Positions 27,930 to 57,476 of a stretch of DNA of 64,000 bases are shown one piece after another; position 1 is the first letter of the stretch; every line of letters begins with the position of its first letter. This DNA comes from an uncultured Candidatus Bathyarchaeia archaeon (GTDB lineage: Archaea > Thermoproteota > Bathyarchaeia > TCS64). The stretch lies in NCBI GenBank assembly GCA_964529745.1, contig CAZGZR010000002.1:1682-65681 (forward strand), in the 5' to 3' direction. Below the pieces are notes generated by a model, which saw only the letters and a program-made list of their open reading frames with translations, did not search any database and was not told where the DNA came from. A program made the translations under genes and the position numbers.

Positions 27930-28256
27930 GTTTCTCTCCTCGTTTTCTCAATCGCCATTAATTGTAACTATGTTCATATGTTAACCATCGCTGACCGTTA
28001 GCAATAGAACTTGGTTCTAATTAGCTGTATTAGATATTTAATGGTTTACAGTGAGTGAAAGAGGCCTAATCGATGATGTTATCCTCACACCGAATGGAGT
28101 ATAGCCGCTAACAGGGGGGACCAGTAACCCAGTCATTTCCATGCCTCTAAGAAGTAAACAAGCCCCAAAACAGACTGTTTTTCCATGAATCATATACCAA
28201 AGTGTAATCCACCGAATCAATATGCGCTGTTTATCTGTCAATGATACAAGAATATT

Positions 28257-28272
28257 GGTGCGGGAGTGGGGT
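28257..28272. repeat. att-like partial copy C of tRNA-Leu 3' end (ggtgcgggagtggggt), with an atttacaggtaaa arm-like motif 10 bp downstream (28283-28295)
   Basis: 15/16 identity to 31934-31949 of the tRNA-Leu gene. Confidence 0.45.
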
Positions 28273-28413
28273 GCCCACACCGATTTACAGGTAAATTGTT
28301 GCATGCGCGTAGAAGTTAAACCACGCGCGCCCAGCAAAGAGATCAATGTCGAATGCTCAAGGTTGATACATGTTTGACCATTAGATTCCGTCGAGCATAT
28401 TTTGTATGTAGAT

Positions 28414-29247
28414 TCAGATTTGGGAGGGACCCTGCATGATGACGTCCTTAATTTTCTCATAGCCTCCAGTCCAGTCACTGACTAACTCCAACCACCAATT
28501 AACCCCCGCATCTTGAAAATCCCGAATGGCCCCTTCTTTATCATCGCCTTTAGCAGCATCGAAACTTATCTTCACGATGTCATATGGATGACGTAAACCA
28601 TGCTTTTCCATGTACTCAACCATATTCCGATAATCATCAGGCGTTAACTGATTCCTATAGTCTTCACTTAGTGGAACCACTCCATCCAGATTGGCTGCCC
28701 TTCTAAAGGGTCCTTTCTTTGGCCAGGTACCGGCGCCCCATACCTTTATACTAGGTTTCTGGACGGGTCTCGGACGGAATCTTACTTTATCGATCGTGTA
28801 ATATTTGCCTGCGTAGCTGAAGTCCTCTCCACTCCATAAGCCATATAGAATCTCAAGGTGTTCGTCAGCCATCTCCGCCATTACTCTAGGGCTTGTCTCT
28901 TCATTCATCAAGGATAATTCGCTGGGACCTCCTAGTCCTACTCCGAGTATTAAGCGTCCTTCTGAGAGTATGTCTAGGGTCGCTGTCTCTCTGGCCAGTT
29001 TCCACGGTCTTCTTCTCGTTAACGGGGTCACCGTGGTACCGATATGGATCTTTTCGGTGTTCTCGGCTACACTGGTTAAGGCGATGAAGGGATCAACGGT
29101 GTCTGGGAAACCTTCCGTGTTAACGATATGGTCCCATAGAAAGAACCCATCCCATCCGGATTTCTCGGCTTCTGATGCTAACTTAGTTACATGTTTGGGG
29201 CTTCCAAACGTGTTACCAAAATTTGGCGCATATAATCCAAACTTCAT
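28414..29247 (-). CDS. LLM-class (luciferase-like) flavin/F420-dependent oxidoreductase
   Basis: TIM-barrel LLM motifs (GTTVTPLTRRRPWKLARETATLDILSEGRLILGVGLGG). Confidence 0.75.
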   Translation of the reverse strand: MKFGLYAPNFGNTFGSPKHVTKLASEAEKSGWDGFFLWDHIVNTEGFPDTVDPFIALTSVAENTEKIHIGTTVTPLTRRRPWKLARETATLDILSEGRLILGVGLGGPSELSLMNEETSPRVMAEMADEHLEILYGLWSGEDFSYAGKYYTIDKVRFRPRPVQKPSIKVWGAGTWPKKGPFRRAANLDGVVPLSEDYRNQLTPDDYRNMVEYMEKHGLRHPYDIVKISFDAAKGDDKEGAIRDFQDAGVNWWLELVSDWTGGYEKIKDVIMQGPSQI

Positions 29248-29360
29248 TGTTCGATTCCATAGGACTATTAGAATTGATGCGTTTAGATTTTATCAAGTCA
29301 TTAATTACTGTCATCGAGCCTTTTTTCTTATGACAACCTCTGATAATTTACAGGTAAAAC

Positions 29361-29376
29361 GGTGCGGGGGTGGGGT
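29361..29376. repeat. att-like partial copy B of tRNA-Leu 3' end (ggtgcgggggtggggt), preceded by atttacaggtaaa (29346-29358)
   Basis: 16/17 identity to the tRNA-Leu 3' acceptor/T-stem. Confidence 0.5.
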
Positions 29377-29651
29377 CTAATCCAAATAAAAAATCGTTAT
29401 CCCCCGAATCTTTCTTTCTTTTTTTCATTTCATGCATCTAGGGCGGACTTCTTGCCTGCGATATGTCTCAAAGAAATGTTGAGTGGACTAATGGGTTACT
29501 GAGGTACACGTTAAAAGTCTTTCAGGTTAAAGAGTTCAAGGCTCGTCCTAAGACGATACTCCAGCATTCGCTGGGTAATAAACGGATAATTAATTTTATA
29601 GATAGTTCATTTTAAAGGAAAGAGTTATAATAAATAATTGATTTTTATAAA

Positions 29652-29930
29652 TTAAATTATGTTTAATAAATCTTGGTAAGCATTATGACAGGTATCTCTC
29701 ATTGTAGAGTTTATCTGAAAATCTCCATATCTTGCCCAACGACTGATGTAAAAAGAGCATAAATAATCTTGAGCATAATTTTTCAAATGTCTTGAAACAA
29801 GTTTATTACGAATTTCATGATTTTTTGGGTGAATTGGTGTAGGAAGCCCCGCAAAAAATTTATCGACACAGTGTAAGGCGCCATAAAATAAAATTGTAGA
29901 TTCCCAATCAAGAAATTTACGAGAATTCAT
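29652..29930 (-). CDS. Small AT-rich protein with a HEPN-like Rx6H motif (candidate RNase/toxin)
   Basis: 92 aa. EIRNKLVSRH fits R[N]x4-6H. It is the last gene of a co-oriented AT-rich 3-gene cassette. Confidence 0.4.
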   Translation of the reverse strand: MNSRKFLDWESTILFYGALHCVDKFFAGLPTPIHPKNHEIRNKLVSRHLKNYAQDYLCSFYISRWARYGDFQINSTMRDTCHNAYQDLLNII

Positions 29931-29997
29931 ATCTAATACATTATAAGCATCATAATTTGATTTTAGAAGAGAGTCATGTTCCTGTTGAGTTGGTATA

Positions 29998-30561
29998 TTA
30001 TTTCCTCCTTAAAAATAAAGGACTCCACTCCGATGATATTGAAAATGTTGAATTAGTTGGTTTAAGTGAAAAATCAAATAAAATATCTTCATATCTATTT
30101 TCTAATTCAATTTGAATATTTACAATTTCTTTTAAAGTATTTGATATGTTTTCAGGGTTAAATATGGTTAAAAAAGATACACCATCAGCATTTAATTTAC
30201 AATAAATTATTTGAACTGCTTCTATTCTTGAGGCTTTTTCTTTGTAATATATAATTGATTCATCTTTTTTTGATTCTTTTTTCCATAATAATCCCTTAAT
30301 TTCTTTTAATTCAATTAACATTGTATCGTATTTTGATTCCAATTCATTTATCTTTTTATCATATTGTGTTAATTTTTCTCCATTTGATATTTGAGGAACT
30401 TTTTTTGAAGTTGACAATAATTGAACTATTTGGTCAATAAAAAACAAAGTACGAGGTTCAGGTTCTTGGATTAAAAAATCAAGTATATCACTTTGAGATA
30501 ATCGTCTTTCAGAACGAAAATATTTTAAAACATCTTCAAGGTTCTCTTCACGTGAACTCAT
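29998..30561 (-). CDS. Hypothetical protein (AT-rich cassette gene 2; predicted coiled-coil)
   Basis: 187 aa, Lys/Glu-rich heptad-like segments (KKINELESKYDTMLIELKEIKGLLWKKESKK). Confidence 0.5.
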   Translation of the reverse strand: MSSREENLEDVLKYFRSERRLSQSDILDFLIQEPEPRTLFFIDQIVQLLSTSKKVPQISNGEKLTQYDKKINELESKYDTMLIELKEIKGLLWKKESKKDESIIYYKEKASRIEAVQIIYCKLNADGVSFLTIFNPENISNTLKEIVNIQIELENRYEDILFDFSLKPTNSTFSISSEWSPLFLRRK

Positions 30562-30562
30562 A

Positions 30563-31225
30563 TTATCCCCTTACTTTTAATGAGATATCATTTACTTCAG
30601 ACAAAGTTTGTTCTAATAATTGATCAATATCTATTGGCCCATCTAAGGAAAAATCTGTTTCATAATTAATCCTAAGTTCACCATCTTTTTCATTTGAATT
30701 ATATCTAGTAATTAATGAATCTTCATTTTTTTCAAGAGAAATACCTGAAAGATTATAACCCATATCAAATATACCAGGGCATTTATCTTTAGCAATATTA
30801 GTATATCTCAACTTAGAATTCGTGGATATTCGTAAAGTAAGTGATAAAATAATTTTATTATATGGAGTATTTGTTAACTCACTACCTAAACCCATAAGAT
30901 AGTTTGCATCAATACTAATAGAATTGTAATCGATTTTAGTAAAATCAGTTTTTTCAGTTTTTATAAATGGCGGTACATATGTACCAATGCGAATTGCTAT
31001 TGAATTGACATTAAAGTCGTATGAAACATTATTTCCTGAAATGGAATATCTTGGAACAATATCAAAAATTTCCATTATAGAATCACGCCTTTGATCAGGC
31101 GCTTTAATTTGAATTTTGGATATTGGCATTTCATCAATAATTCTTTTTACATAATTAGGTTCATGTTCTCTGAATTTTATTTTGATTTCAAAAATCTCAA
31201 CGTCGTTCTTTGAAAAGAGTGACAT
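30563..31225 (-). CDS. Hypothetical protein (AT-rich cassette gene 1)
   Basis: 220 aa. The stop is 1 nt from the start of the next gene. No recognisable motif. Confidence 0.5.
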   Translation of the reverse strand: MSLFSKNDVEIFEIKIKFREHEPNYVKRIIDEMPISKIQIKAPDQRRDSIMEIFDIVPRYSISGNNVSYDFNVNSIAIRIGTYVPPFIKTEKTDFTKIDYNSISIDANYLMGLGSELTNTPYNKIILSLTLRISTNSKLRYTNIAKDKCPGIFDMGYNLSGISLEKNEDSLITRYNSNEKDGELRINYETDFSLDGPIDIDQLLEQTLSEVNDISLKVRG

Positions 31226-31342
31226 TTTCGAAATATTTAGTAAGTTAATGAAAATATAAGTTTGATGGATACCATTTATTTATAACGACAACAAGGAGAA
31301 GATAAATAGTTAAAGGATTCAAGATATCCATTTTCAAGCAAA

Positions 31343-31792
31343 ATGAAATTTCTACCTAAAGAAGGAACCCTTCAACTGGTAATCGCGGGAATACCAAATA
31401 AATACAAGCCATTCTGTAAACTACTGCTTGAAGCTGGCCTGACCTCTCTTGAGGCTTGGCAACTGAAATGGAGCAGCATCAACTTCAAGACAGGACACTT
31501 CAACGTGACACCGACAAAAAAACCGTAATCCTCGGACACTACAGCTATCACAGAGCCTTTTCACATGATACAGCTTCAGAGAAGGCTTCAGAAAACACAG
31601 GATAAAGCTAGCAGAGGAGCTAGGCAAACCGGTGATACTGAAATACAGTCTCAAGACTTTCAGGACATTCTGTGTCACAAGCTGCATCTACAAGTTCAAC
31701 GACCCGTTCGATAAAGCTATGGCAGAAACCGAAATAACGGTGGGTGGTGCCTGTGATGCGGGGGTGGGGTTCGAACTCTCCTACTTGAAGTG
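31343..31792 (+). pseudogene. Tyrosine-integrase pseudogene (frameshifted C-terminal catalytic region) abutting att copy A
   Basis: Frame 2 encodes LTSLEAWQLKWSSINFKTGHFNV (box I-like) and stops after an A7 run at about 31519. Another frame continues ...LKTFRTFCVTSCIYKF... (degenerate box II) to 31792. Confidence 0.5.
31756..31775. repeat. att-like partial copy A of tRNA-Leu 3' end (tgcgggggtggggttcgaac)
   Basis: 19/20 identity to 31935-31955. It lies about 160 bp from the intact tRNA. Confidence 0.55.
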
Positions 31793-31931
31793 ATACCACC
31801 ACACTCTCTTTTTATCAATGTTTTTTCTCTCCATCCATGGTTGGGTAACCACTTCACCTGCCTAAAGTAACAAATCATTTATACGATACTCCATAAAAAA
31901 AACGAAAAGTTACCGCCCACCGTTACCAGCA

Positions 31932-32017
31932 TGGTGCGGGGGGTGGGGTTCGAACCCACGGAGGACTAGTCCATCAGGTCCTAAGCCTGACCCCTTTGGC
32001 CACTCGGGAACCCCCGC
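31932..32017 (-). tRNA. tRNA-Leu (anticodon TAG), class II with long variable arm, CCA encoded
   Basis: The minus strand reads GCGGGGG-TT-CCCG..GGG-T-CAGGC/TCAGG-CTTAGGA-CCTGA-long variable arm-GTGGG-TTCGAAC-CCCAC-CCCCCGC-A-CCA. Acceptor, anticodon and T stems all pair. Confidence 0.8.
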
Positions 32018-33392: not shown

Positions 33393-33788
33393 CTACGGTC
33401 CCTCCGTCTCCCTGGGCTCGGCTCTCTCCCTCAGCTTCTCCTCGATCACAGCCAGCAACTCGTTCATGTCCACAGGCTTCAACAGGAGGGAATCCACGCC
33501 GAGGCCCTCCAACGCGTTCCCCGGGTAACGGAAGCCAGTGAGCATGACCTTCACGGCCCCGGGGCTCAGCTCGCTCACACGTCTCGACAGCTCCAAACCG
33601 GAGGCGTCGGGCAGCCTGTAATCGAAGACCACGACGTTGTACGCGTGTTCACCGAGCTTCGCCTCGGCCTCCCGTCCGCTGGCCGCCGAGTCCAGCACGT
33701 AGCCCTTCCTCTCGAGGAAGAGGGTGAACGTTCTGACGATGTCCTTCTCGTCGTCCACTAGAAGAACCCGGCGCCCAGCCTCGTCCAT
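33393..33788 (-). CDS. Stand-alone CheY-like response regulator receiver protein
   Basis: VLLVDDEKDI...DYRLPDASGLEL...VKVMLTGF. The ATG at 33788 is preferred over the extended ORF. Confidence 0.7.
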   Translation of the reverse strand: MDEAGRRVLLVDDEKDIVRTFTLFLERKGYVLDSAASGREAEAKLGEHAYNVVVFDYRLPDASGLELSRRVSELSPGAVKVMLTGFRYPGNALEGLGVDSLLLKPVDMNELLAVIEEKLRERAEPRETEGP

Positions 33789-33912
33789 GCTTCTACTCCC
33801 CGAGTTTATACCTGTATTGAAAACGAAATCATTTATATCTTGTTCAGGGTCACCCCTGTTCTCCTCGCGGCACCTACACATTTATTATCCACGTGTAAGC
33901 CCTGAACCGCGT

Positions 33913-35856: not shown

Positions 35857-36396
35857 TTAACCGATTCCCATGGAGACGTGTTCCTCGAAGACACGGCGCC
35901 TCACGACCCTGTAGGCGGGGTAGTAGGCTTCACGGTACTCGGACGAGTGGTGTCGCGGCGCCGGCTCCCCAGCCTTGAGCTCCTCGTCGTACCTGCGGAT
36001 GGCCTCCCTGTCCAGCCCCAGGTGCTCCTCCTCCGCGAGCTCCTTGAAAAGCCCCCACAGCGCCATGAACTCCCCGGGGTCGCCCTTCACGGCAGAGGAC
36101 TCCTTCATGGCCTCGAAGAGCTGCTCAAGGCTGCCGCCACATCTCAAGTATGGCCTGAGGTTCACCCTCACCGTCTCCCCGTCCACCGAAACAGGCTCAA
36201 CCAGGGGCTCCCACGGATGATCCCGCAGGTCGATCCTTCCCGCCTCCTCCAGCAGCCTCCCATAGGCGTCCTCCCCCATTATGTGGCCCACCCCGAAGAC
36301 ACCCTGATAAAGGAGCTTGTAAACGTCCTTGACGCGCATCCTAGGCCGCGTCTCAAGGTGCTTGAGCAGGAACTCTCTGAAATCTTCCCTACCCAT
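35857..36396 (-). CDS. Hypothetical protein
   Basis: 179 aa, clean ORF, 22 nt downstream of the Fe-S protein gene on the same strand. Confidence 0.45.
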   Translation of the reverse strand: MGREDFREFLLKHLETRPRMRVKDVYKLLYQGVFGVGHIMGEDAYGRLLEEAGRIDLRDHPWEPLVEPVSVDGETVRVNLRPYLRCGGSLEQLFEAMKESSAVKGDPGEFMALWGLFKELAEEEHLGLDREAIRRYDEELKAGEPAPRHHSSEYREAYYPAYRVVRRRVFEEHVSMGIG

Positions 36397-36418: not shown

Positions 36419-37093
36419 TCAGCGCCGCTGAGCCCTTGGCACCAGCTTTATCGAGTCTGTGGGGCACGTGGACACGCATAATCCGCACCCGAAGCAGTTG
36501 GAGGCGTCGTAGACCAGCTCATGGTCATTCATATTTCTTGCGTTGAAGACGCATCGGTCTACACATACGCCGCAGTGGTTGCAGCTCCCCGCGTCGTCCT
36601 CCGCGACGTAGCTGGAAGTGAGCACCTGCGTAGATATGCCGAATCGCAGCAGGCCGCCCAGCGTGTGGCAGCAGCAGGGGCAGCAGCTACAGATAACCGT
36701 CGGCCGGGCGTCGCCCTTCATGGTGTAAGCCATGTGTACCAGCCCAGCCTCGTGGCTCGCCTCAAGCGCCTCAATGGCCTCCTCTAGGCTCACCTCCTGT
36801 GGGTGGTACTCCTCAAACAAGACTGACTCCTCGGCGGCCTCGTCTATGCTCAGACAGACCCTGGTGGGGGAGCTGCAGTTACCGTACTCGGTCCTGCAGC
36901 CGCAGTCCTGTAGGACTATCCTCTCTGCGCCTCCCAGTAATTCCCTCATCTCGCCTAGATCGTATACCCTGTGCTCGGCCTCGACCATGACGTTCACGGG
37001 GACTGTGACGGCTCTCTCCAAGTCCTCCGCTAGCTCCCTCAGCCTGTCCTCCGTGTAGTCGTTGGGGTACCTCCGCCCCATCGTCAACGGCAT
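36419..37093 (-). CDS. Cys-rich iron-sulfur protein: C-terminal 2x[4Fe-4S] ferredoxin domain plus an unusual CSCCPCCCH cluster
   Basis: CNHCGVCVDRC and CFGCGLCVSTCP ferredoxin motifs. Upstream are CGC, CSSPTRVC and ICSCCPCCCHTLGG. Confidence 0.6.
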   Translation of the reverse strand: MPLTMGRRYPNDYTEDRLRELAEDLERAVTVPVNVMVEAEHRVYDLGEMRELLGGAERIVLQDCGCRTEYGNCSSPTRVCLSIDEAAEESVLFEEYHPQEVSLEEAIEALEASHEAGLVHMAYTMKGDARPTVICSCCPCCCHTLGGLLRFGISTQVLTSSYVAEDDAGSCNHCGVCVDRCVFNARNMNDHELVYDASNCFGCGLCVSTCPTDSIKLVPRAQRR

Positions 37094-37300
37094 ACAGGGA
37101 CATCACCCGTGGACTGATTTAAGGCTTATAACGGGTTAGCTTGGAACTGGCGCCTTCAATAAAACATAAATAAACAAGAGACATTCATCAGGTATATCCT
37201 CATGAGTGAGAAGAGAGGGCGACTTGGTGATAACAGACATAACCGATTTTTCCCTCATAGACTCGCCGTGACGAATACGCATCAGGAGACGGAAACAGAA

Positions 37301-38035
37301 ATGTCCGAATATGAACAGGCGCGGGTTTCGACGGGAGTATCAGGGCTCGACGACATGCTTGGCGGAGGTTTGCCGGAGGAAGACATCTTACTGGTCAGTG
37401 GAGGCCCGGGCACGGGTAAGACCATAATGTCGCTCCAGTACATCAACCAGGCGGTGGACAGAGGCGAGCCATGCGTCTACATATCCTTCGAGGAGTCGAT
37501 GAAGAAGAAGATCGAGTACGCCAAGGGCTTCGGCTGGGACCTCCAGGGGGCCATAGACGACGACATGCTGGACGTCCTCGACATATACATGATCCCCCAG
37601 TCCCAGGGCTTCGTAGACCTCTACGAGCGCGTGCGGGGGAAGCTCCAGTTCACGTTGGAGAAGGAGATCGAGAACCTGGTGAAGAGGATCGACGCCAAAC
37701 ACGTGCTGGTGGACCCGTTGACGAGCATACTGGTCCACGAGCACAGGTCAGACAAGAAGAGATACATAATAGGCCAGCTTTTCGACCAGATACGGCAGCT
37801 GGGATGCTCCGCGGTGATAGTTAACGAAGGGCTGCCCAAGGACAACGATTTCTACATGGAGCACTTCCTTGCCGACGCCGTGATCCTACTCCAGAAGGAG
37901 GTAATCGACTTCAAGCTCATCAAGACCTTGATAATAGACAAGGTTCGAGGCATAAACTTCGACGAACAGCCCCGAAGATACATAATCACAAACCGCGGGA
38001 TGCAGGTGTTCAACGCGGAACCGGTTACGTTGTGA
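37301..38035 (+). CDS. KaiC-like single-domain RecA-superfamily ATPase
   Basis: GVSGLDDMLGGGLPEEDILLVSGGPGTGKT Walker A, YISFEES (the KaiC ISxEE motif), Walker B HVLVDPLT. Start at ATG 37301. Confidence 0.75.
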   Translation: MSEYEQARVSTGVSGLDDMLGGGLPEEDILLVSGGPGTGKTIMSLQYINQAVDRGEPCVYISFEESMKKKIEYAKGFGWDLQGAIDDDMLDVLDIYMIPQSQGFVDLYERVRGKLQFTLEKEIENLVKRIDAKHVLVDPLTSILVHEHRSDKKRYIIGQLFDQIRQLGCSAVIVNEGLPKDNDFYMEHFLADAVILLQKEVIDFKLIKTLIIDKVRGINFDEQPRRYIITNRGMQVFNAEPVTL

Positions 38036-38045
38036 GTGTGAAGCC

Positions 38046-39476
38046 ATGGCTCAGTTTGTTATCCGCGCCGCGAAGCCACTGATAAAGTGGTATGCCCTCG
38101 GCTTCCTGGATGAGAGGAACGTGAGCGCCAGGGAAGAGGCTCTCATAAAGAAGAAAATCAAGAGGGTGGCCAGGTCCGGCTTAGGGAAGAAGCTTGAGGT
38201 GGAGCAGAGCACCAGGATAGAAGACATTCCTTTAACAGGCTACGACTACTACCTGCCCTTCTTCAGGAACCCACGTGAAGGCGACTTCATTTACCCGTTA
38301 GACGACTATGTCCGCTCTCAGACAAGCGGAACCATGGGAAAGCCCAAGATATTCTTAAACCCGAAGACGGGGGTCATGGAGAACCTGAAGAGATCGGTCA
38401 TAAGCCTCATGTTCATCTGCACCCATGACGGCACAAGGCCGCTTCTAGAGATGGGGGACACCATATACGCGAACCTTCCCGGCGGGGCTTTCATAGGGGG
38501 CCAGATAACCTCAAACATGAGGGGCAGCCAGTCCTCGTTCATCAAGATGGTTCCCGAGGACGCCGACAACATGACCTTCAAGAAGAAGGTTGACTACTTC
38601 GTGGAGAACCATGAAAAAATAGACATGGCTTACATGACCGTAACAACTTTCCTAGACGAGATATGCCCCCAGGTAGACGAGGAGATATACCTCAAGGGGT
38701 TCCTGACACAGGATATCTCAGCTGGGCCCTTGAAGGAAAAGATGAAGGCGAAGAGCGGACACTACCCCAAGACTGTTTTCGGATCTACGGAGACGTTCCT
38801 CTCGGGGCTTCCGTCGGTGGAGTACCCCGGCTCGTTCTTCTTCGACTGGAGGGTGGTGTACCACGAGTTCATCCCAGAAGACCAGACAGTCGATCCGAAC
38901 ATCGTAACCTTAGCCGAACCCCCTGAGACCATCGGCATGATGGACGTAGAGCCGGGTAAAAGGTACCAGCTTGTGGTGACCCCCATCTACAGCGATCTCA
39001 CCAGATACGTGATGCCGGACATATTCGAGTGCGTCTCCAAGGGGGACAACCTGTTGGGCTCCAACATCCCGGTCTTCAAGTATTATTCGAGGGCGGACAG
39101 GCTGCTGGTTCTCCACAACTTCACGCGGATAAACGAGGAGGAGATGGTCTCCATCCTCAACGACGCCGAAATCCCGTTCGTCGACTTCACGGCCAGGAGA
39201 GAGCTTCACGAGTCACGTGAGTTTCTGTCGCTCTACATCGAGCTGTCGGAGACGATGAGCGAGGACGAGGTGCTTGACAGGGTGAACAGAAGGCTCATCG
39301 AGTTTGACAAAGACTGGAGAGACCTGAGCGACTTCATGAACTACACGCCTCTGAAGGTCACGTTTCTCCCCAAAGACACCTTCAAGAAGTACCTTCACGG
39401 CAAGGAAGGAATGGCCCGCATCCAGAGGATCGGCATGCGCGAGGAAAGGTTCAACGAGCTGTTGAGCCATACATAA
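38046..39476 (+). CDS. GH3-family (auxin-responsive GH3-like) adenylate-forming acyl-acid amido synthetase homolog
   Basis: SQTSGTMGKPK matches GH3 motif I (SSGTSxGxxK). Length 476 aa and the C-terminal domain fit the ANL/GH3 fold. Confidence 0.65.
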   Translation: MAQFVIRAAKPLIKWYALGFLDERNVSAREEALIKKKIKRVARSGLGKKLEVEQSTRIEDIPLTGYDYYLPFFRNPREGDFIYPLDDYVRSQTSGTMGKPKIFLNPKTGVMENLKRSVISLMFICTHDGTRPLLEMGDTIYANLPGGAFIGGQITSNMRGSQSSFIKMVPEDADNMTFKKKVDYFVENHEKIDMAYMTVTTFLDEICPQVDEEIYLKGFLTQDISAGPLKEKMKAKSGHYPKTVFGSTETFLSGLPSVEYPGSFFFDWRVVYHEFIPEDQTVDPNIVTLAEPPETIGMMDVEPGKRYQLVVTPIYSDLTRYVMPDIFECVSKGDNLLGSNIPVFKYYSRADRLLVLHNFTRINEEEMVSILNDAEIPFVDFTARRELHESREFLSLYIELSETMSEDEVLDRVNRRLIEFDKDWRDLSDFMNYTPLKVTFLPKDTFKKYLHGKEGMARIQRIGMREERFNELLSHT

Positions 39477-39481
39477 ACCGT

Positions 39482-40642
39482 TTAGACGGAGACCACGCTG
39501 TCGGCCAGGTCCTCAAACTTTATTATCTCGGACGCGTCCTCGTGGCTCCTAGGGTCGTAGAAACAGGTGAACAGCACCTGGCTGGATTTAATGACGGGGT
39601 TCTTAGACGTGATGAAGGAGTAGACCCTCCTCCACCCGTGGGCGTGGATCAGGTGTGAAAGCGTGTAGAGAATGATCTCACACGGGATCCTCCTCTCGTT
39701 GCTATAGCTAATGACGTCGGAGAACAGTATGTCTATCTGATTCGGGTCGTCGTTGATCGACGTTATCCTATCTTCGAAGGTCTTGAGGAGGGATCGATTA
39801 CCGGGCAAAACCCTGACCAAGTACAGCTCATCTGAGACGTCGCTGTTGTATATGTCGTCGGCCGTGATTAGATCGTACATCGTGATGAGTAGAGTTCGTA
39901 TACCTTTCTTCGAGTTGTTGAGGAGCCTGTCTTTGATCCATTGGATGTCTTTCCCCTTTCCAGTGTTTGACTGGTTAACCATAGTAAACTTACCCCCAAC
40001 GTGGTTGACGTATTCCTCGGGGACCCCGCCTATCAAGAACGTGCGAAGGTCGTCTGCGAAGAAGGAGAACCTCGGCTGAGTCATCCCCAGGTATATGACG
40101 GTTTTAGCCATGATCGACGTCAAGTCTGTGAAACCAGGGTCCACGAACCCTGTGATGAACCCGAGATTTACGAAGAAGAGGTTCAGCCAGCCGGCGATCT
40201 GTAGTTTAACATCCATGCCGTACCTCCAGTTAATCACCATCAAGCTTAACACCATGAAGAGGTAGGGCGCCAGCGCCACGATCATCATGATGGGCACCCA
40301 TTCTCTGCCCAATATGAACTGGATCAACGGGAGCAAGGCTATGATTAGAGAGGAGGCGAGGAAGGCCTTGGGCCTGTTAACGAGTTCGCCTATGCCCGCC
40401 ACCATCATCGCGAAGCCCAGCATCAGCAACAGGAACGCGATTATCCCGAGGGAGCTGATGCCCAGCTCCGTCGGCGTGAGCATCCTGATGATTATGTTGA
40501 CTCCGTATAACGCGTATCCGGCGCCCCAATAGAGGTAGAAGCGTCTATTCGTCTTCCTGAAGATGGAGAGGAGGAGAGACGCGATGGCTATGGTGACGAC
40601 CCCATTAAACAACCGAAACAAGAAGTCTAATGGGAATATCAT
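39482..40642 (-). CDS. Membrane protein (about 7 TM helices) with C-terminal cytoplasmic DUF835-like (degenerate KaiC/RecA-like) domain
   Basis: The N-terminal 210 aa are hydrophobic. The C-terminal 170 aa resemble the archaeal DUF835 arrangement. Convergent with the KaiC-like/GH3 pair. Confidence 0.5.
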   Translation of the reverse strand: MIFPLDFLFRLFNGVVTIAIASLLLSIFRKTNRRFYLYWGAGYALYGVNIIIRMLTPTELGISSLGIIAFLLLMLGFAMMVAGIGELVNRPKAFLASSLIIALLPLIQFILGREWVPIMMIVALAPYLFMVLSLMVINWRYGMDVKLQIAGWLNLFFVNLGFITGFVDPGFTDLTSIMAKTVIYLGMTQPRFSFFADDLRTFLIGGVPEEYVNHVGGKFTMVNQSNTGKGKDIQWIKDRLLNNSKKGIRTLLITMYDLITADDIYNSDVSDELYLVRVLPGNRSLLKTFEDRITSINDDPNQIDILFSDVISYSNERRIPCEIILYTLSHLIHAHGWRRVYSFITSKNPVIKSSQVLFTCFYDPRSHEDASEIIKFEDLADSVVSV

Positions 40643-40781
40643 CTGTCTACTTCCTAAAAGGTACTATTTGAGAGCTAAGAGGATAAATATTATTCTATGA
40701 ATAGAAAATGTTACAATTTAAATTATAATTATATCCAGCAGTGAGCCAGAGTGTAACTAAATGGTTCAGTGTTTCATTTTG

Positions 40782-41006
40782 TCACATGGTTTTCTTGGTA
40801 ATGAAGACGGTGCCGTCCTTGGTGGCCACCCACCTCAACACGTCTCCGTCGCCCAGCTCGAGGAACTTGAACACGCATGACGGGATGGTCGTCCTCCTCC
40901 TATACCCCCTCACGGTTATGTGGGTCTCCTCCATGCAGACTATGTCGTCTACTTCAATATCAGACATGGGATAATCTACATATACAGTATGTATATAGTT
41001 TGCCAT
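40782..41006 (-). CDS. AbrB/SpoVT-family small DNA-binding protein
   Basis: TVRGYRRRTTIPSCVFKFLELGDGDVLRWVATKDGTVFITKK matches the swapped-hairpin AbrB motif. Alternative ATG at 40967. Confidence 0.5.
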   Translation of the reverse strand: MANYIHTVYVDYPMSDIEVDDIVCMEETHITVRGYRRRTTIPSCVFKFLELGDGDVLRWVATKDGTVFITKKTM

Positions 41007-52803: not shown

Positions 52804-52881
52804 GGGCCCGTAGCTCAGCACGGATAGAGCACAGCCCTCCTAAGGCTGGGGTCGAGGGTTCGAATCCCCCCGGGCCCGCCA
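52804..52881 (+). tRNA. tRNA-Arg (anticodon CCT), CCA encoded
   Basis: GGGCCCG-TA-GCTC-AGCACGGATA-GAGC-A-CAGCC-CTCCTAA-GGCTG-GGGTC-GAGGG-TTCGAAT-CCCCC-CGGGCCC-G-CCA. Acceptor and anticodon stems are perfect. Confidence 0.8.
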
Positions 52882-52882
52882 C
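52856..52882 (+). repeat. attL (within the tRNA-Arg 3' end)
   Basis: Exact 27-nt match to 57477-57503. Confidence 0.85.
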
Positions 52883-52898
52883 GAACCCCCCTGGGACA

Positions 52899-54047
52899 TT
52901 ATTTGAGTTTACGATACAGATGCAGGTCATCGAACTCATCGACCTTGTTGAAACCTGCTTCTAGTAGAGATATGGCCTCTTCATGCGTCTTGGCTACCTT
53001 CACGGTGAAATTGTTTTCATCGTGGAACATGGCTTCCGATAGCTGTATGTATTTCAGAGTATGGTTTATCGTCTTGTGACCTAGGAACTGCTGAACATAC
53101 ACGATATCTTTTGTTTGATGATAGAGCATTGTGGCCTTCCAGTGTCGGAACGTATGGAATGTTATTTTCTTTATCCTGTTGTTCTGGAGTTTGTACGCTG
53201 CGCGTTTTCTAGCACGTAAAACGTTCCTGTTTAGCGTCTTCTTTGTCTTTGCGTACAGCTTGTTTGTACCATGTTTTCTCTTGGCTTCGAGAAGCATGTT
53301 GATACATCGGTGAGTTATCTTCGTTATTCGTGGGTTGCTTCCTTTTTCTGGACTAATCCGAATCGTGTTAGACTCCAGATCAATGTCATCCCATGTACCA
53401 TCAAGAGCTTCGCCTTTCCTCAAAGCCGTCTCTTTGGCCAATTGAAGAATAGCTGCTTCCTCTATGTTACAATTCGCAATCAGATTATCAATTTCTGATT
53501 CAGTTGGGATAAATGGAAAAGTTTGTTTCTCTGTGAACTTTGGTTTTTCCCATTCCATTCCCATCATTGACAGAAAATCTGTGTATGTGTCGCATGCTCT
53601 GTTCTTGCTCTTCCCAACCCATTTCTGCTCAGCTATCTTTAACTTCACTGATTCAGGGTCAAGAAGAATTGCTCCTCTTTTCGCTAGTACCTTTATGTGT
53701 CGATGTCTGCGTTCAATTGTTGGCTCTGCGAGTCCACGTTTTTTCATGTGAAATATGAACTCTAGAAGCAGTTTTTCCGTGTCTGAGATATTCCCCGTAG
53801 CTCCTACTTTAGTTGTAGCTACGATCAAGTTTTTCGACTCCTTAGAGATGTCGCCTACTTGACAACCAATACTCTGATTCTGGGCTGATATATTTTCTGC
53901 GATGAACTTTCTACCACAGATATTACAGCTTCGACGCTGATAGATCTTATCTTTCCTCGTTATTTTTCCTTCTTTATGGTTTTCAGTACTTCCACATCTA
54001 GGACTAACTAATCTTGCGCTTTCACCTCCTTCAACCTCTTTCAACAT
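52899..54047 (-). CDS. Tyrosine recombinase/integrase (intact, pNOB8-type arrangement next to att), N-terminal Zn-finger-like region
   Basis: Box I (ALRKGEALDGTWDDIDL), box II (HTFRHWKATML), catalytic Tyr (HTLKYIQL). CGS...CNICGRKF at the N-terminus. Confidence 0.85.
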   Translation of the reverse strand: MLKEVEGGESARLVSPRCGSTENHKEGKITRKDKIYQRRSCNICGRKFIAENISAQNQSIGCQVGDISKESKNLIVATTKVGATGNISDTEKLLLEFIFHMKKRGLAEPTIERRHRHIKVLAKRGAILLDPESVKLKIAEQKWVGKSKNRACDTYTDFLSMMGMEWEKPKFTEKQTFPFIPTESEIDNLIANCNIEEAAILQLAKETALRKGEALDGTWDDIDLESNTIRISPEKGSNPRITKITHRCINMLLEAKRKHGTNKLYAKTKKTLNRNVLRARKRAAYKLQNNRIKKITFHTFRHWKATMLYHQTKDIVYVQQFLGHKTINHTLKYIQLSEAMFHDENNFTVKVAKTHEEAISLLEAGFNKVDEFDDLHLYRKLK

Positions 54048-54058
54048 TTTAAAAACTT

Positions 54059-54544
54059 TTAATCAGGTAATGTTTCGGATATGGCCTGAACGATCCTTTT
54101 AGCCAGCTCCAGCTCTTTCGAAAGTCTTTCCCTGTAAGTAGCCACATTAGATAGTTCCTCAATAAAATTAGTCAGTATCTTATCAGGTGGAAATAGGCTA
54201 GTTGGATCATACCGGGATAGATCAGTATCTTCTTCATCTGTCCATGTATTGTAGATAAGCCCAGAAGGAAGATAGTATGTTTCCATTGTGGCTAGAATGT
54301 TATCAGCTATGATACTTGTTTCTTCGATTTTCACTTTGAAGTTGTGTTTCTTCATTAGGGGAAGCATGGTTTTTAGAAGCTCGGAGTATTGTTTTCTCAG
54401 TGTTTCGTCGTCTGCTTCATTGGGTTCGAAGGTGTATCCTATGAGGACGTTTTCTGTGATTTCGGATAGGTTTAACCCCATCTCTTTGGCTTTTTGAACC
54501 GCTTCTTTATTTACACTCAGGTTCAACCTCTGTTTCTCAGACAT
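54059..54544 (-). CDS. Ribbon-helix-helix (CopG/Arc-like) N-terminal domain protein with C-terminal extension
   Basis: MSEKQRLNLSVNKEAVQKAKEMGLNLSEITENVL is a typical RHH beta-alpha-alpha. Confidence 0.5.
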   Translation of the reverse strand: MSEKQRLNLSVNKEAVQKAKEMGLNLSEITENVLIGYTFEPNEADDETLRKQYSELLKTMLPLMKKHNFKVKIEETSIIADNILATMETYYLPSGLIYNTWTDEEDTDLSRYDPTSLFPPDKILTNFIEELSNVATYRERLSKELELAKRIVQAISETLPD

Positions 54545-54633
54545 ATCATTCTATACGCATACCAATACGTATATAAATTGTGCGTATATTAATGCGCATA
54601 ATCACTCAATTAACCCCTTTTTTATATTTTTAC

Positions 54634-54757
54634 GCCGTATATTAATGCCGTTTCCTATTGCCGTATGTTAATGCCGTTTCCTATTGCCGTATATTAATGC
54701 CGTTTCCTGATGCCGTATATTAATGCCGTTTCCTGATGCCGCATATTAATGCCGTTT
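54634..54757. repeat. 4.7 tandem copies of a 26-bp iteron (gccgtatattaatgccgtttcctatt), putative replication origin/Rep binding array
   Basis: Seen directly in the sequence. Copies differ at 1-2 positions. There are no spacers, so it is not CRISPR. Confidence 0.8.
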
Positions 54758-55113
54758 TTTTATATAAACTGATTTTGAAAAAATGACTTACGTATCAAAA
54801 AATGTGAACATAAAAGATATAAATAAGATAAATACAATATTAAATGAGAAGCGCTTTCTCCACAGAAGGATAAAATAGGTTTTAGCCCCCACGCCAGGGG
54901 GAGAAACCTAGGTCTTTCCGCCCCTTCTGTGTATTATTCAATTATATATTAATTTTTATATAAATTCATCATTCGATTTTACTTTTATTAAGATACTGTC
55001 TATGTATATTGTGCATGTATTTTTTTCTCATTAACAAGTTTGAATTAGTCATATTATTATCAAGTCGTGGCGGGTTGGCGCTTCGCGCCTTCCCCGCCAA
55101 TCCATTAGAGATT

Positions 55114-55986
55114 TCATTCAACAGTATGTTTCAACAATATTGCCCAAGGAGATACTCCATACTGAATAATTTCAATATTGGCTATAAATGTAGCACCTAT
55201 TTCCTTTTTATCTGGATTGGTATTTCTTCTTGAAAAATTCAAATATGATGTTTTTACTAAATCTTCATTTGCTTTTCCTAATACATGTATTTCAAAATAT
55301 GAAAATACATTAATATCCCTCTCCTCTATCATCGTCTTTATTTCATCATCATATATTAGATTCAGTATTCTTTCATTATGGTCAGTACTATATATAAATT
55401 CACTATCATGCTCATCAATAAATAATATAAATCTGCCATTTATTGTATTTTCCTTTTTATTATCAAATTTCCACTGTCTTAAATATGATGCATTGAAATC
55501 AACATCTAAATGTTCTTCTTTTAATGGTGCCACCTTAGATAATTCTTTTATTGTATATGCCTTTGCAGAATAAAAATACATTCTTGATCCATCCCAACAT
55601 TTTATTCCTCTTTCGAGATATTCATTTATTTCGCTTGGATTTTTTAAGGAATTTGATATCAACATACCCGAATTAATGTTTTGTAATAAATAATCTGATT
55701 CATGTGCTCTTGCTTCAGCGATATCATCTAATAAATCTGTAATATCTGAACCTGTAAAATTACCTCTTTTAATACTAAGCGCAATATTACCATCAGGGGA
55801 AAAAATAGGTTTTTTTAAAACACATTTATATTTTAATGATGGAGGTTCCCCAATAAAATTAATTATTTTATCAATGCTTGGTTGGATAACATTTTCCCTA
55901 ATCACCTGATAACCTAATAATTCTAAAAGTTTTTTAATTTGATATTCTGCTGTTGAACCAATCATTGGTGCCAGGTGACCTGACAA
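55114..55986 (-). CDS. Hypothetical protein (AT-rich cargo; possible nuclease-like)
   Basis: 290 aa with no confident motif. A possible D..(D/Q)xK patch is HLDVDFNASYLRQWK. Confidence 0.45.
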   Translation of the reverse strand: MSGHLAPMIGSTAEYQIKKLLELLGYQVIRENVIQPSIDKIINFIGEPPSLKYKCVLKKPIFSPDGNIALSIKRGNFTGSDITDLLDDIAEARAHESDYLLQNINSGMLISNSLKNPSEINEYLERGIKCWDGSRMYFYSAKAYTIKELSKVAPLKEEHLDVDFNASYLRQWKFDNKKENTINGRFILFIDEHDSEFIYSTDHNERILNLIYDDEIKTMIEERDINVFSYFEIHVLGKANEDLVKTSYLNFSRRNTNPDKKEIGATFIANIEIIQYGVSPWAILLKHTVE

Positions 55987-55991
55987 ATTTG

Positions 55992-56447
55992 TTATCCCTC
56001 ATCGGGAATTCTAATGTAATGATATCTTCCTTCCCTTTCTATTCTCCTCAATACTCCTCTTTGGACTAGTCTTCTCAGATAAACACCAATAGCACCAGCT
56101 GAATCAGGAACAGCATTTATTTCAAGTGCTCTAGCTACTTCTGCCGAAGATCTTGGAGTTCTACCCCAATCTGTATCGAATAAAGATTGAATATTGGATA
56201 TTGTACTCCTTTGAACTCTAATAACTGGAACCTCAGATGTCGGAGCTTCTAAGATTTCTTCTTCAGTAGGTGTTTCAATATCAACCCTTTCGCCTTCTCC
56301 TAAAATTTCATTTACTTCATCTATGAATTCCTTAATCTGTTCAAGATTCGTTCTTAAAAATTCAAGGCTACCTGTTACAGATAATTCGTAAGTGTTACCT
56401 TTTATTTTAAAATGAAATTCCTGAGATTCGTCTTCTGTCATTCCCAT
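55992..56447 (-). CDS. Hypothetical protein with C-terminal winged-helix DNA-binding domain
   Basis: C-terminus AEVARALEINAVPDSAGAIGVYLRRLVQRGVLRRIEREGRYHYIRIP resembles a wHTH. Confidence 0.5.
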   Translation of the reverse strand: MGMTEDESQEFHFKIKGNTYELSVTGSLEFLRTNLEQIKEFIDEVNEILGEGERVDIETPTEEEILEAPTSEVPVIRVQRSTISNIQSLFDTDWGRTPRSSAEVARALEINAVPDSAGAIGVYLRRLVQRGVLRRIEREGRYHYIRIPDEG

Positions 56448-56452
56448 ATTTA

Positions 56453-57397
56453 CTATAAAGCTTTATAGAATGTAAAATATTCGGATGAATGGATTTTCCA
56501 AAAATCGTTATAAGATAACTCAACACTCCAAGAGACATATTTTCCGTTAATATCAGCCCAGAACCCGACAAGATACCACTTGTATATCGAGTTACCTTCA
56601 AGATCCACCTGACCACGAGGACTATCATCCTTCTCCTCAACAAGAAACAACCCAAAACCCTTCGAAACAGAAAAAGCCCGCTTACGGAAAATCCACATCA
56701 AAGCAAGAGATAAGACCATATTACGATTCCGCTTCTCAGTCAACAACGCATTATTCACCTTAGTAACATACTTCAACACATAACCCACACCAGCACCAAG
56801 ACTGTACAACCCGAACACGTCACTAAAGCCCCACTTCCAATAACTCGTGAGTAACGCCTTCTCCTTGATCCTCCACTTCCCATTATAGAAGAAAGTCTCA
56901 AACTCAGTTTCACGAAAAAGAGCTATACAATGAATATGCGGATAACCATCACGCTGAGCCTCCCACACACGAATAAGATCAAATTTACCATACCTCCTCT
57001 GTATACCTGATCTTGTCCTGTTGAATAATTTCCCAATCTCTTCCCAAGCCTGATCGAGACTCATCTTCCTCCTAAATGTGAAAGTAATGAACAATGCTCT
57101 CGTTTTCTGTATCTTGTTCCGATCCTTAGGATTGAAGAACTCGATATTCGGTAAATTCAATAAATGTTTTAACCGCTTACCTAGTTTCCAAGCATAAACA
57201 TCGTTACCACGTTTCGCGGCCTTAACCGCCTTGTACTCTTTCTCATAAGTGTGTATATTCTCTTTTCTGAATATCAAATACTCAACATATTTTGACCACT
57301 CGATGAAATACTCGATTATCTGATCCAAATCCGGATTCGAATGTCCAAGTAATGATTTATACCACCCAAGTCTGGGTTTAGGTTTTTTAAATGACAT
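56453..57397 (-). CDS. HUH-superfamily rolling-circle replication initiator (phiX174 gpA-like, two-Tyr motif III)
   Basis: Motif I FITFTF, motif II HIHCIALF (HUH), motif III GVGYVLKYVTK (YxxKYxxK as in the phiX174 A protein). Confidence 0.75.
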   Translation of the reverse strand: MSFKKPKPRLGWYKSLLGHSNPDLDQIIEYFIEWSKYVEYLIFRKENIHTYEKEYKAVKAAKRGNDVYAWKLGKRLKHLLNLPNIEFFNPKDRNKIQKTRALFITFTFRRKMSLDQAWEEIGKLFNRTRSGIQRRYGKFDLIRVWEAQRDGYPHIHCIALFRETEFETFFYNGKWRIKEKALLTSYWKWGFSDVFGLYSLGAGVGYVLKYVTKVNNALLTEKRNRNMVLSLALMWIFRKRAFSVSKGFGLFLVEEKDDSPRGQVDLEGNSIYKWYLVGFWADINGKYVSWSVELSYNDFWKIHSSEYFTFYKAL

Positions 57398-57476
57398 AAA
57401 ACAGGCATTGAGCCTGTCCTAGATTGTGGATGAAAAAAAGAAGGAAAGTACACGGTGAATATCTCCATGTCGGGAA

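Follow-up and report, generated by a model that had tools for sequence, protein, structure and literature searches.

The 64,000-nucleotide (nt) stretch of DNA from an uncultured Bathyarchaeia archaeon analysed here (contig CAZGZR010000002.1, hereafter called the window) contains three adjacent genes, encoding a KaiC-like ATPase, a ligase resembling the GH3 amido synthetases and a seven-transmembrane (7TM) protein with a receptor-like layout. The ligase and the membrane protein form one exchangeable unit, which is swapped independently of the KaiC. Tentatively, and with somewhat less than an even chance in our estimate, the trio may be a signalling module of the Bathyarchaeia, in which a small-molecule ligase and a 7TM receptor matched to it share a KaiC transducer. 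No further copies of the trio were found within the 64-kb window. The genes and their parts are the following.

37301-38035, + strand: KaiC-like ATPase, 244 amino acids (aa), with GGPGTGKT and YISFEES
38046-39476, + strand: GH3-like ligase, 476 aa, with SQTSGTMGKPK
39482-40642, - strand: membrane protein, 386 aa, convergent with the ligase
40058-40642, - strand: 7TM domain of the membrane protein (residues 1-195, AF2 model)
39485-39991, - strand: cytoplasmic tail of the membrane protein, an alpha/beta domain (residues 218-386, RecA/KaiC-like fold)
38046-40780: exchangeable two-gene cassette, comprising the genes for the ligase and the 7TM receptor together with the intergenic region upstream of the latter

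The cassette is limited by the KaiC stop at one end and by an AbrB gene at the other. The spacing from the KaiC stop to the ligase start is exactly 10 nt, and the stops of the ligase and the membrane-protein gene face each other tail to tail at a distance of 5 nt. The sequence motifs, the 10-nt gap and the convergent membrane gene that an earlier note on this DNA had quoted are all present in the sequence. An alternative upstream ATG for the KaiC (at 37202) is unsupported by the homologues, which have 244 aa.

Linkage and exchange of the cassette

The neighbourhood was scanned from both members of the pair. The ligase-anchored scan covered one genome per species and yielded 47 loci, nearly all from Bathyarchaeia; the receptor-anchored scan covered metagenome contigs and yielded 53. 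In the former, the ligase has a membrane-protein homologue directly next to it in 44 of the 47 loci, and the other three are cut by contig ends. In the latter, the GH3-like gene immediately adjoins the receptor gene in 46 of the 53 loci, the remaining seven contigs ending within about 220 nt. The adjacency thus exceeds by far what chance would produce, and it is conserved well beyond the one genome from which the earlier note had proposed it. A KaiC of the same subfamily is adjacent in 28 of the genome loci and 33 of the metagenome loci. All 46 complete trios share the gene order receptor-ligase-KaiC, with receptor and KaiC convergent. The ligase lies on the strand of the KaiC in 27 trios and on that of the receptor in 19. 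Inverted repeats around the ligase that might explain these two orientations were not found; only short repeats at chance level are present.

The module is found in at least seven unrelated contexts (beside ProRS, aIF2-gamma/aIF5B/S6e, a glycosidase, radical SAM and others), across which the receptor, ligase and KaiC alone stay together. No fourth conserved gene emerged from an all-against-all clustering of the neighbouring open reading frames (ORFs). Genomes commonly contain at least two ligase-receptor pairs, the second often without its own KaiC (L008, L013, L030 and L040, alongside L005, L002, L004 and L006). GH3 enzymes had been called rare in archaea in the earlier note, but in the Bathyarchaeia GH3-like genes are not rare and are often present in two or more copies per genome. 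The core of its idea, an uncharacterised signalling or conjugation module, holds up. The composition had to be revised, however: the obligate pair consists of the ligase and the membrane protein, whereas the KaiC is frequent but dispensable and evolves independently.

Two observations on single loci may be added. L041 (6850-11598) displays the order receptor - ligase - second receptor - KaiC, its two receptors being 39% and 43% identical to the window protein. Furthermore, three copies of the module (L003, L019 and L023) lie on contigs that were binned as Krumholzibacteriaceae, Patescibacteria and Desulfaltia. L003 contains the full syntenic block, including a ProRS 89% identical to that of the window, and L023 contains the KaiC-side flank (a hypothetical protein and a Fer4 protein, see below). 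The three contigs are probably archaeal DNA that was mis-binned.

Within the 46 trios, 20 ligase classes and 19 receptor classes could be distinguished, which occur in only 20 combinations. The pairwise identities of the ligase and the receptor are correlated (Spearman rho 0.70), in comparison to 0.09 for ligase and KaiC and 0.18 for receptor and KaiC. The largest KaiC cluster (at least 80% identity, 14 loci including the window) holds four cassette classes, and the classes 0, 6 and 17/16 from this cluster reappear in a second KaiC cluster. In the syntenic context of the window, the flanks and the KaiC can be near-identical while the ligase and the receptor differ. The following pairs of loci illustrate the discordance (aa identity), the last one displaying the reverse pattern.

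L044 / L003: KaiC 92%, ligase 50%, receptor 47%
L023 / L039: KaiC 92%, ligase 43%, receptor 42%
L009 / L036: KaiC 89%, ligase 51%, receptor 43%
L044 / L023: KaiC 65%, ligase 91%, receptor 94%

The edges of the exchanged segment can be located in L044. In a sliding-window comparison with L003, the nucleotide identity amounts to 87-96% through the hypothetical, Fer4 and KaiC genes, as far as the junction of KaiC and ligase. It then falls to 48-68% over the two cassette genes and the spacer upstream of the receptor, before recovering to 86-97% from AbrB onwards. The middle block of L044 is 83-98% identical to L023 at the nucleotide level. L044 is a clean recombinant with its breakpoints at the edges of the cassette. 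The metagenome loci L072, L081 and L092 retain a KaiC that is 82-84% identical to that of the window, next to ligases of 44-48% and receptors of 41-44% identity. The opposite is observed in L051, with 82% for the receptor, 85% for the ligase and 64% for the KaiC. Faster evolution of the cassette as the sole cause of the discordance was rejected in view of this reverse pattern (L044/L023, and L051 against the window). From the constant linkage of ligase and receptor and their one-to-one co-variation it follows that the two share a specificity that does not extend to the KaiC.

An arms race could generate polymorphism as well. The trio would then be a conflict system (anti-virus defence or toxin-immunity) with the membrane protein as effector, which would fit the cassette swaps at a fixed locus between conserved flanks and the combination of a membrane protein with an ATPase, a common layout in defence. 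Nevertheless, we consider this highly improbable: PADLOC returned no matches for the ligase and the membrane protein and generic P-loop matches only for the KaiC, the module is situated among housekeeping genes outside defence islands and mobile elements, and it is present in two to three copies per genome with a uniform architecture.

The ligase, the receptor and the KaiC-like ATPase

The ligase was compared to the GH3 family models of Pfam (PF03321, PF23571 and PF23572). The window protein matches the central domain GH3_M with 36.9 bits (cut-off 23.6), while GH3_C stays under its cut-off (17.9 versus 23.6 bits) and the GH3 N-domain has no match. Relatives of the ligase come from metagenome-assembled genomes of Bathyarchaeia. 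In a set of 25 relatives (48-86% identity), GH3_M is matched by 25, GH3_C by 22 and the N-domain by nine at E<=0.01. The generic models AMP-binding (PF00501) and AMP-binding_C are matched neither by the window ligase (E<=0.1) nor by any of the 25 relatives (E<=0.01). The GH3 assignment of the earlier note, which might have been a generic ligase in disguise, is thereby borne out by a family-specific hidden Markov model (HMM), that of the central domain.

The nucleotide-binding motifs of GH3 enzymes have been described as SSGTSxGxxK, YGSSE and YRxGD (PMC12493201), and all three are recognisable in the window ligase:

residues 93-101: motif 1, TSGTMGKPK
residues 245-249: motif 2, FGSTE
residues 317-325: motif 3, DLTRYVMPD (TRYVMPD 319-325)

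Eight residues are invariant in 25 ligase sequences, namely T93, S94, G95, P100, T248, E249, Y321 and D325. Variability is highest in segments such as the pair of helices at the N-terminus (residues 1-60, entropy 2.0-2.2). The AF2 model of the ligase (pLDDT 87.4) was matched by Foldseek to the plant enzymes GH3.6, GH3.5 and JAR1 (E about 1e-18, TMq 0.64-0.70; for GH3.6 E 1.7e-18 and TMq 0.69) and to the PaaK-like coenzyme A (CoA) ligase BT_0428 (E 5.9e-19). Judged from these profiles, motifs and folds, the ligase is assigned to the adenylate-forming enzymes, on the GH3 side of the GH3/PaaK group.

Compared to the plant GH3 amido synthetases (JAR1/GH3.11 and GH3.6), the window ligase shares the central-domain HMM, the three motifs and a similar fold. 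However, it is about 100-130 residues shorter, displays an identity of 13-16%, remains under the thresholds of the N- and C-domain HMMs, and has as its partner a membrane receptor that is encoded next door. A parallel in the prokaryotes is OlsH, the bacterial N-acyl-ornithine synthase, which is likewise GH3-like with divergent but recognisable motifs (PMC12493201). Its product is membrane-active, and the N-acyl-ornithine serves for ornithine lipids (PMC12493201). In contrast to the module described here, OlsH shares its operon with a methyltransferase and an acyltransferase of the alpha/beta-hydrolase type and lacks a KaiC or 7TM partner (PMC12493201).

OlsH was the sole characterised prokaryotic GH3-like enzyme found in our literature search, and it invites the proposal of a modification of membrane lipids or the envelope. 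In this case, OlsH-like N-acyl amino acids (amino lipids) made by the ligase would alter the membrane, their sensing or handling would fall to the 7TM protein, and viruses or the environment at the cell surface would drive the diversity of the cassettes. The tight linkage to a polytopic membrane protein would be accounted for, and polymorphic cassettes are typical of surface-variation loci. Yet archaea are believed to lack such amino lipids (PMC12493201), an O-acyltransferase partner (OlsI-like) is not conserved, and the dead KaiC domain of the membrane protein, together with its KaiC partner, points to signalling. Overall, such a role appears improbable.

The membrane protein of the window had no match above threshold in Pfam and NCBIfam. 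In its AF2 model (pLDDT 81.5) the transmembrane (TM) helices span residues 3-31, 34-53, 64-87, 91-111, 113-141, 146-164 and 169-187 and are joined by very short loops. The positive-inside rule places the N-terminus outside and the C-terminus inside, where a linker leads to the alpha/beta domain. Conserved features are the TM2 motif RRFYLYWGxGFxLYGxNIxxR, the sequence GELVNR at the inner end of TM3, and polar or charged residues inside the helices (R34, N49, R53 and K180). In Foldseek searches of the PDB, the helical part resembles the 7TM bundles of G-protein-coupled receptors. Among 34 relatives, Pfam matches stay below threshold: 7TMR-DISM_7TM in six (best E 0.027) and DUF5985 in 20. As in the bacterial 7TMR-DISM receptors, to which these six weak matches point, a seven-helix module is coupled to a cytoplasmic signalling module. 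Here, however, an extracellular ligand-binding domain is lacking, the cytoplasmic module is a dead KaiC-like domain, and the matches are sub-threshold.

For this cytoplasmic tail, the best Foldseek matches were FlaH/ArlH (4yds, E 1.1e-3) and PH0250 (2ekd, E 1.8e-3), accompanied by BcsE, Elp4/5/6 and dozens of KaiC CI chains (E 1e-2 to 4e-2). The probability of these matches was about 1.0 and the target TM 0.45-0.55. The typical catalytic elements are not retained: in the 34 relatives the Walker A motif GxxxxGK[ST] is not conserved after strand 1, and the Walker B aspartate is missing, its expected position reading IILYSLS (an equivalence drawn from the fold rather than from superposed residues). 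Invariant instead are the motifs INDD, HxHGWxR and F-E..AD.

The earlier note had described this tail as a KaiC-related, DUF835-like module. The kinship with KaiC is upheld by the RecA/KaiC-like fold, whereas the likeness to DUF835 is not recovered: with PF05763 the window protein has no match at E<=10, and just one of the 34 relatives has one (E 0.072). DUF7504, the nearest Pfam family, is matched below threshold in four of the 34 (best E 0.026). Aligned by hhalign, the profiles of the tail and of the neighbouring KaiC, both shallow (Neff about 3), gave a probability of 0.7%, and none of the PDB sequences was matched by the tail profile in hmmsearch. With moderate confidence, the tail may be regarded as an inactivated KaiC by its appearance, related to KaiC by modelled fold and architecture and placed outside DUF835. 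The membrane proteins of Euryarchaeota with DUF835 (PF05763) similarly combine N-terminal TM helices with a cytoplasmic degenerate KaiC/RecA-type domain, but the window protein fails the HMM of that family.

A profile search of 1.84 billion representative proteins returned 112 relatives of the membrane protein, nearly all of which, fragments aside, possess the same architecture of about 380 aa. DUF835 is absent in the 10 of these 112 that were scanned with Pfam. Two fusions are informative, as both halves of the receptor are re-used in them. P0237 is a response-regulator fusion, linking a REC domain (E 3.8e-27) to the tail domain (E 2.7e-48), and it also gives the best DUF7504 score (25.3 bits, cut-off 27). 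In P0292 the seven-helix domain is joined to NitrOD5, a described archaeal output domain. Therefore, both receptor halves behave like modules of signalling proteins. P0237 parallels the published REC-DUF835 architecture with an 'inactivated KaiC' (PMC5847659).

One relative that consists of the TM part only has a weak match to AA_permease_2 (E 0.0023, under the cut-off). This match would suit a different role, a vectorial uptake and activation of carboxylic acids: the seven helices would be a permease or channel, the ligase, in the manner of FadL/FadD-type vectorial acylation, would trap the incoming acid in the cytoplasm, and the KaiC would gate or energise the process. Lignin-derived aromatic acids or fatty acids might be the substrates, with the cassettes differing in substrate. 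The conserved polar and charged residues inside the membrane and the rank of BT_0428 as joint top structural match would be in line with it, and several paralogous pairs per genome would suit different substrates. We judge it distinctly unlikely, since all 25 ligase relatives match the GH3 models and none AMP-binding or PaaK, the receptor domains recombine with REC and NitrOD5 rather than with transport modules, and catabolic genes are not conserved nearby.

The KaiC-like ATPase is the most conserved member of the trio (mean column entropy 1.15, versus 1.51 and 1.88 for the other two genes). It matches KaiC (PF06745) with E 2.6e-53 over 229 of 231 profile positions in the Pfam scan. Its best sequence matches in the PDB are the KaiC CI domain (E 5.7e-46) and the archaeal PH0284, and PH0186 and SSO2452 are further single-domain archaeal relatives. 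Both the Walker A motif (GGPGTGKT) and the catalytic EE pair (FEES in YISFEES) are kept. The cut-offs of the clock-type KaiC models TIGR02655 and NF006799 are not reached (100.9 versus 546 and 134.8 versus 408 bits), and the protein contains one domain of 244 aa rather than two. It is thus predicted to be an active single-domain enzyme.

A possible signalling route

In the signalling reading, the ligase would adenylate a carboxylic acid with ATP and would then probably couple the acid to an amino acid, as GH3 enzymes do. The ligand is expected to be bound inside the membrane, because the seven-helix bundle of the receptor has almost no exposed loops. Most likely, the receptor would recognise the amphipathic acyl-amino-acid product of its own ligase; recognition of the ligase's substrate is less likely. 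Subsequently, the dead KaiC-like domain would hand the signal on to the KaiC ATPase, for instance by stacking on it or assembling with it, and a shift in the ATPase or autophosphorylation state of the KaiC would in turn alter the outputs further down. Several ligase-receptor pairs of a genome may share one KaiC, since within the loci examined second copies are often without their own KaiC. Strains would carry different pairs at the same locus, in a pherotype-like manner.

The most specific form of this proposal is a hormone- or quorum-like system with strain 'dialects', where each ligase would produce a distinct acyl-amino-acid signal, read by its cognate loop-less 7TM protein and passed through the dead KaiC domain to a shared KaiC hub. 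We regard this form as doubtful, though well worth considering. The same logic is known from plants, where the hormone JA-Ile, synthesised by JAR1, has a receptor dedicated to it. In bacterial pherotype loci (comQXP-comA and agrBDCA), the enzyme that produces the signal varies in step with its receptor and is exchanged jointly with it, whereas the transducer downstream is conserved. The module likewise displays several specificity classes at a single locus in closely related genomes. It differs in that its protein families are not related to those of the pherotype loci, a gene for a peptide precursor is lacking, a KaiC ATPase takes the place of the two-component response regulator, and secretion of a signal is putative.

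A KaiC transducer would be consistent with earlier proposals for the archaea. As cited in PMC10983859 and PMC5847659 (Galperin et al. 2018), single-domain KaiC-like ATPases have been proposed as archaeal signalling hubs (Makarova, Galperin & Koonin 2017, mBio). These hubs resemble the module in that a gene for a single-domain KaiC-like ATPase lies beside one for a protein with a dead KaiC-like domain. The fusion of the dead domain to REC is another shared trait (REC-DUF835 there, P0237 here; PMC5847659). In the module, however, the dead domain constitutes a separate family (by HMM not DUF835, MEDS or KaiC), and it is carried on a 7TM bundle that is always paired with a GH3-like ligase.

Several points weigh against the signalling reading. 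As the PaaK-like CoA ligase and the plant GH3s rank equal in Foldseek, the second half-reaction may form either an amide or a thioester. The kinship of the tail with KaiC depends on Foldseek E values of 1e-3 to 4e-2, the sequence-profile tests being negative. The KaiC is missing from about a third of the loci, and the clustering of neighbours revealed no exporter, precursor gene or downstream effector that is conserved with the module, so that neither the secretion of a signal nor an output is apparent from the genes. Finally, co-variation and joint transfer would also be expected from direct binding between ligase and receptor, or from a common substrate in a transport or metabolic role.

Direct binding is the core of the remaining alternative, in which the trio is a receptor-controlled enzyme. 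The 7TM/dead-KaiC protein would sense an external or membrane cue and, with the KaiC, would switch the ligase by binding to it. The ligase would then be the output, acting on an intracellular metabolite or protein, and the co-variation would reflect a protein interface. The adjacency, the fixed order and the one-to-one co-variation fit equally, the variable N-terminal helices of the ligase could be the docking surface, and an export function would be unneeded. Two aspects speak for caution: the presence of very different pairs at one locus with a near-identical KaiC is not readily explained, and in a 7TM protein without exposed sensory loops the cue would still be membrane-borne. We therefore consider a receptor-controlled enzyme unlikely, but a serious contender to the matched ligase and receptor of the signalling reading.

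Genomic surroundings and significance

The following features surround the trio in the window.

33393-33881, - strand: stand-alone REC protein (Response_reg E 3.9e-19)
35857-36396, - strand: hypothetical protein of 179 aa, without Pfam match, divergent from the KaiC
36419-37093, - strand: Cys-rich 4Fe-4S ferredoxin-domain protein (Fer4) of 224 aa, divergent from the KaiC
40782-41006, - strand: AbrB/PrlF-like ORF
52804-52881: tRNA-Arg(CCT)
52899-54047, - strand: tyrosine integrase
54059-54544, - strand: CcdA-like antitoxin
56453-57397, - strand: rolling-circle Rep protein (REP_ORF2-G2P)

The AbrB-type and CheY-like regulators that the earlier note had reported nearby are indeed present (at 40782-41006 and 33393-33881). 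As parts of the module they had to be dismissed: they belong to the flank, AbrB lies beyond the recombination breakpoint, and both are missing in the module's other contexts. REC genes occur within 5 kb in only about nine of the 47 loci. AbrB, Fer4, the 179-aa hypothetical protein, ProRS, metallo-beta-lactamase (MBL)-fold proteins and MFS were considered as partners and rejected, as they are confined to one syntenic context. The 179-aa hypothetical protein and the Fer4 protein accompany the KaiC only within the syntenic context of the window, where they do so in 9-13 loci.

Two further proteins were noticed in the loci. A protein of about 475 aa, judged by eye to be like the M20-family amidohydrolases, is present three genes from the KaiC in eight loci that share the syntenic context of the window (among them L007, at 1338-2765, and the equivalent site in L023, L027, L028, L036, L039 and L045); it is absent in the lineage of the window. 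In plants, GH3 conjugates are cleaved by M20 hydrolases of the ILR1 type, and therefore this protein could be a conjugate hydrolase of the same pathway. The other is a protein of about 300 aa with an MBL-like fold and an N-terminal signal or anchor (again judged by eye), which adjoins the receptor gene in L025, L026, L033, L037 and L038, and also in L007 and L036. In five of those loci it is followed by a stand-alone CheY-like REC protein. The MBL-like and REC proteins are possible accessory components in one genomic context.

Elsewhere in the window, a low-GC island (52804-57400, GC about 0.33 versus 0.60-0.64 in the upstream flanks) directly follows on the tRNA-Arg(CCT) and comprises the integrase, antitoxin and Rep genes listed above. 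It resembles an integrated element of small size, either a plasmid or a virus. A second low-GC stretch (28000-32017, GC 0.33-0.41) ends at a tRNA-Leu (31932-32017, - strand) and contains two ORFs without Pfam match (29998-30561 and 30563-31225). It may be another integrated element.

In the searchable full-text literature, no description was found of GH3 together with KaiC in archaea, or of GH3 in Bathyarchaeota. The superfamilies of the components are already known, and the pairing of a KaiC with a dead KaiC is a predicted theme. What appears to be new is the family of receptors, the obligate link between these and a GH3-like ligase, and the polymorphism of the cassette. Context is thereby given to two unannotated families, the 7TM/dead-KaiC receptors and an archaeal clade of GH3-like enzymes.

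The Bathyarchaeia are among the most abundant uncultured archaea of sediments, and their ways of perceiving the environment and one another are, to our knowledge, almost unexplored. For the 'KaiC hub' model proposed for archaeal signalling, the module supplies a concrete, testable input in the form of a defined enzyme and receptor family. The exchange of the cassette is moreover a natural experiment, as cognate and non-cognate pairs can be compared in vitro. If the ligand is the product of the ligase, the module would represent a chemically new archaeal signalling language. And if the reading in terms of 'dialects' is true, it would add a new class of receptor to the KaiC hub and would provide an archaeal parallel to both the plant GH3/JA-Ile system and the bacterial pherotypes.

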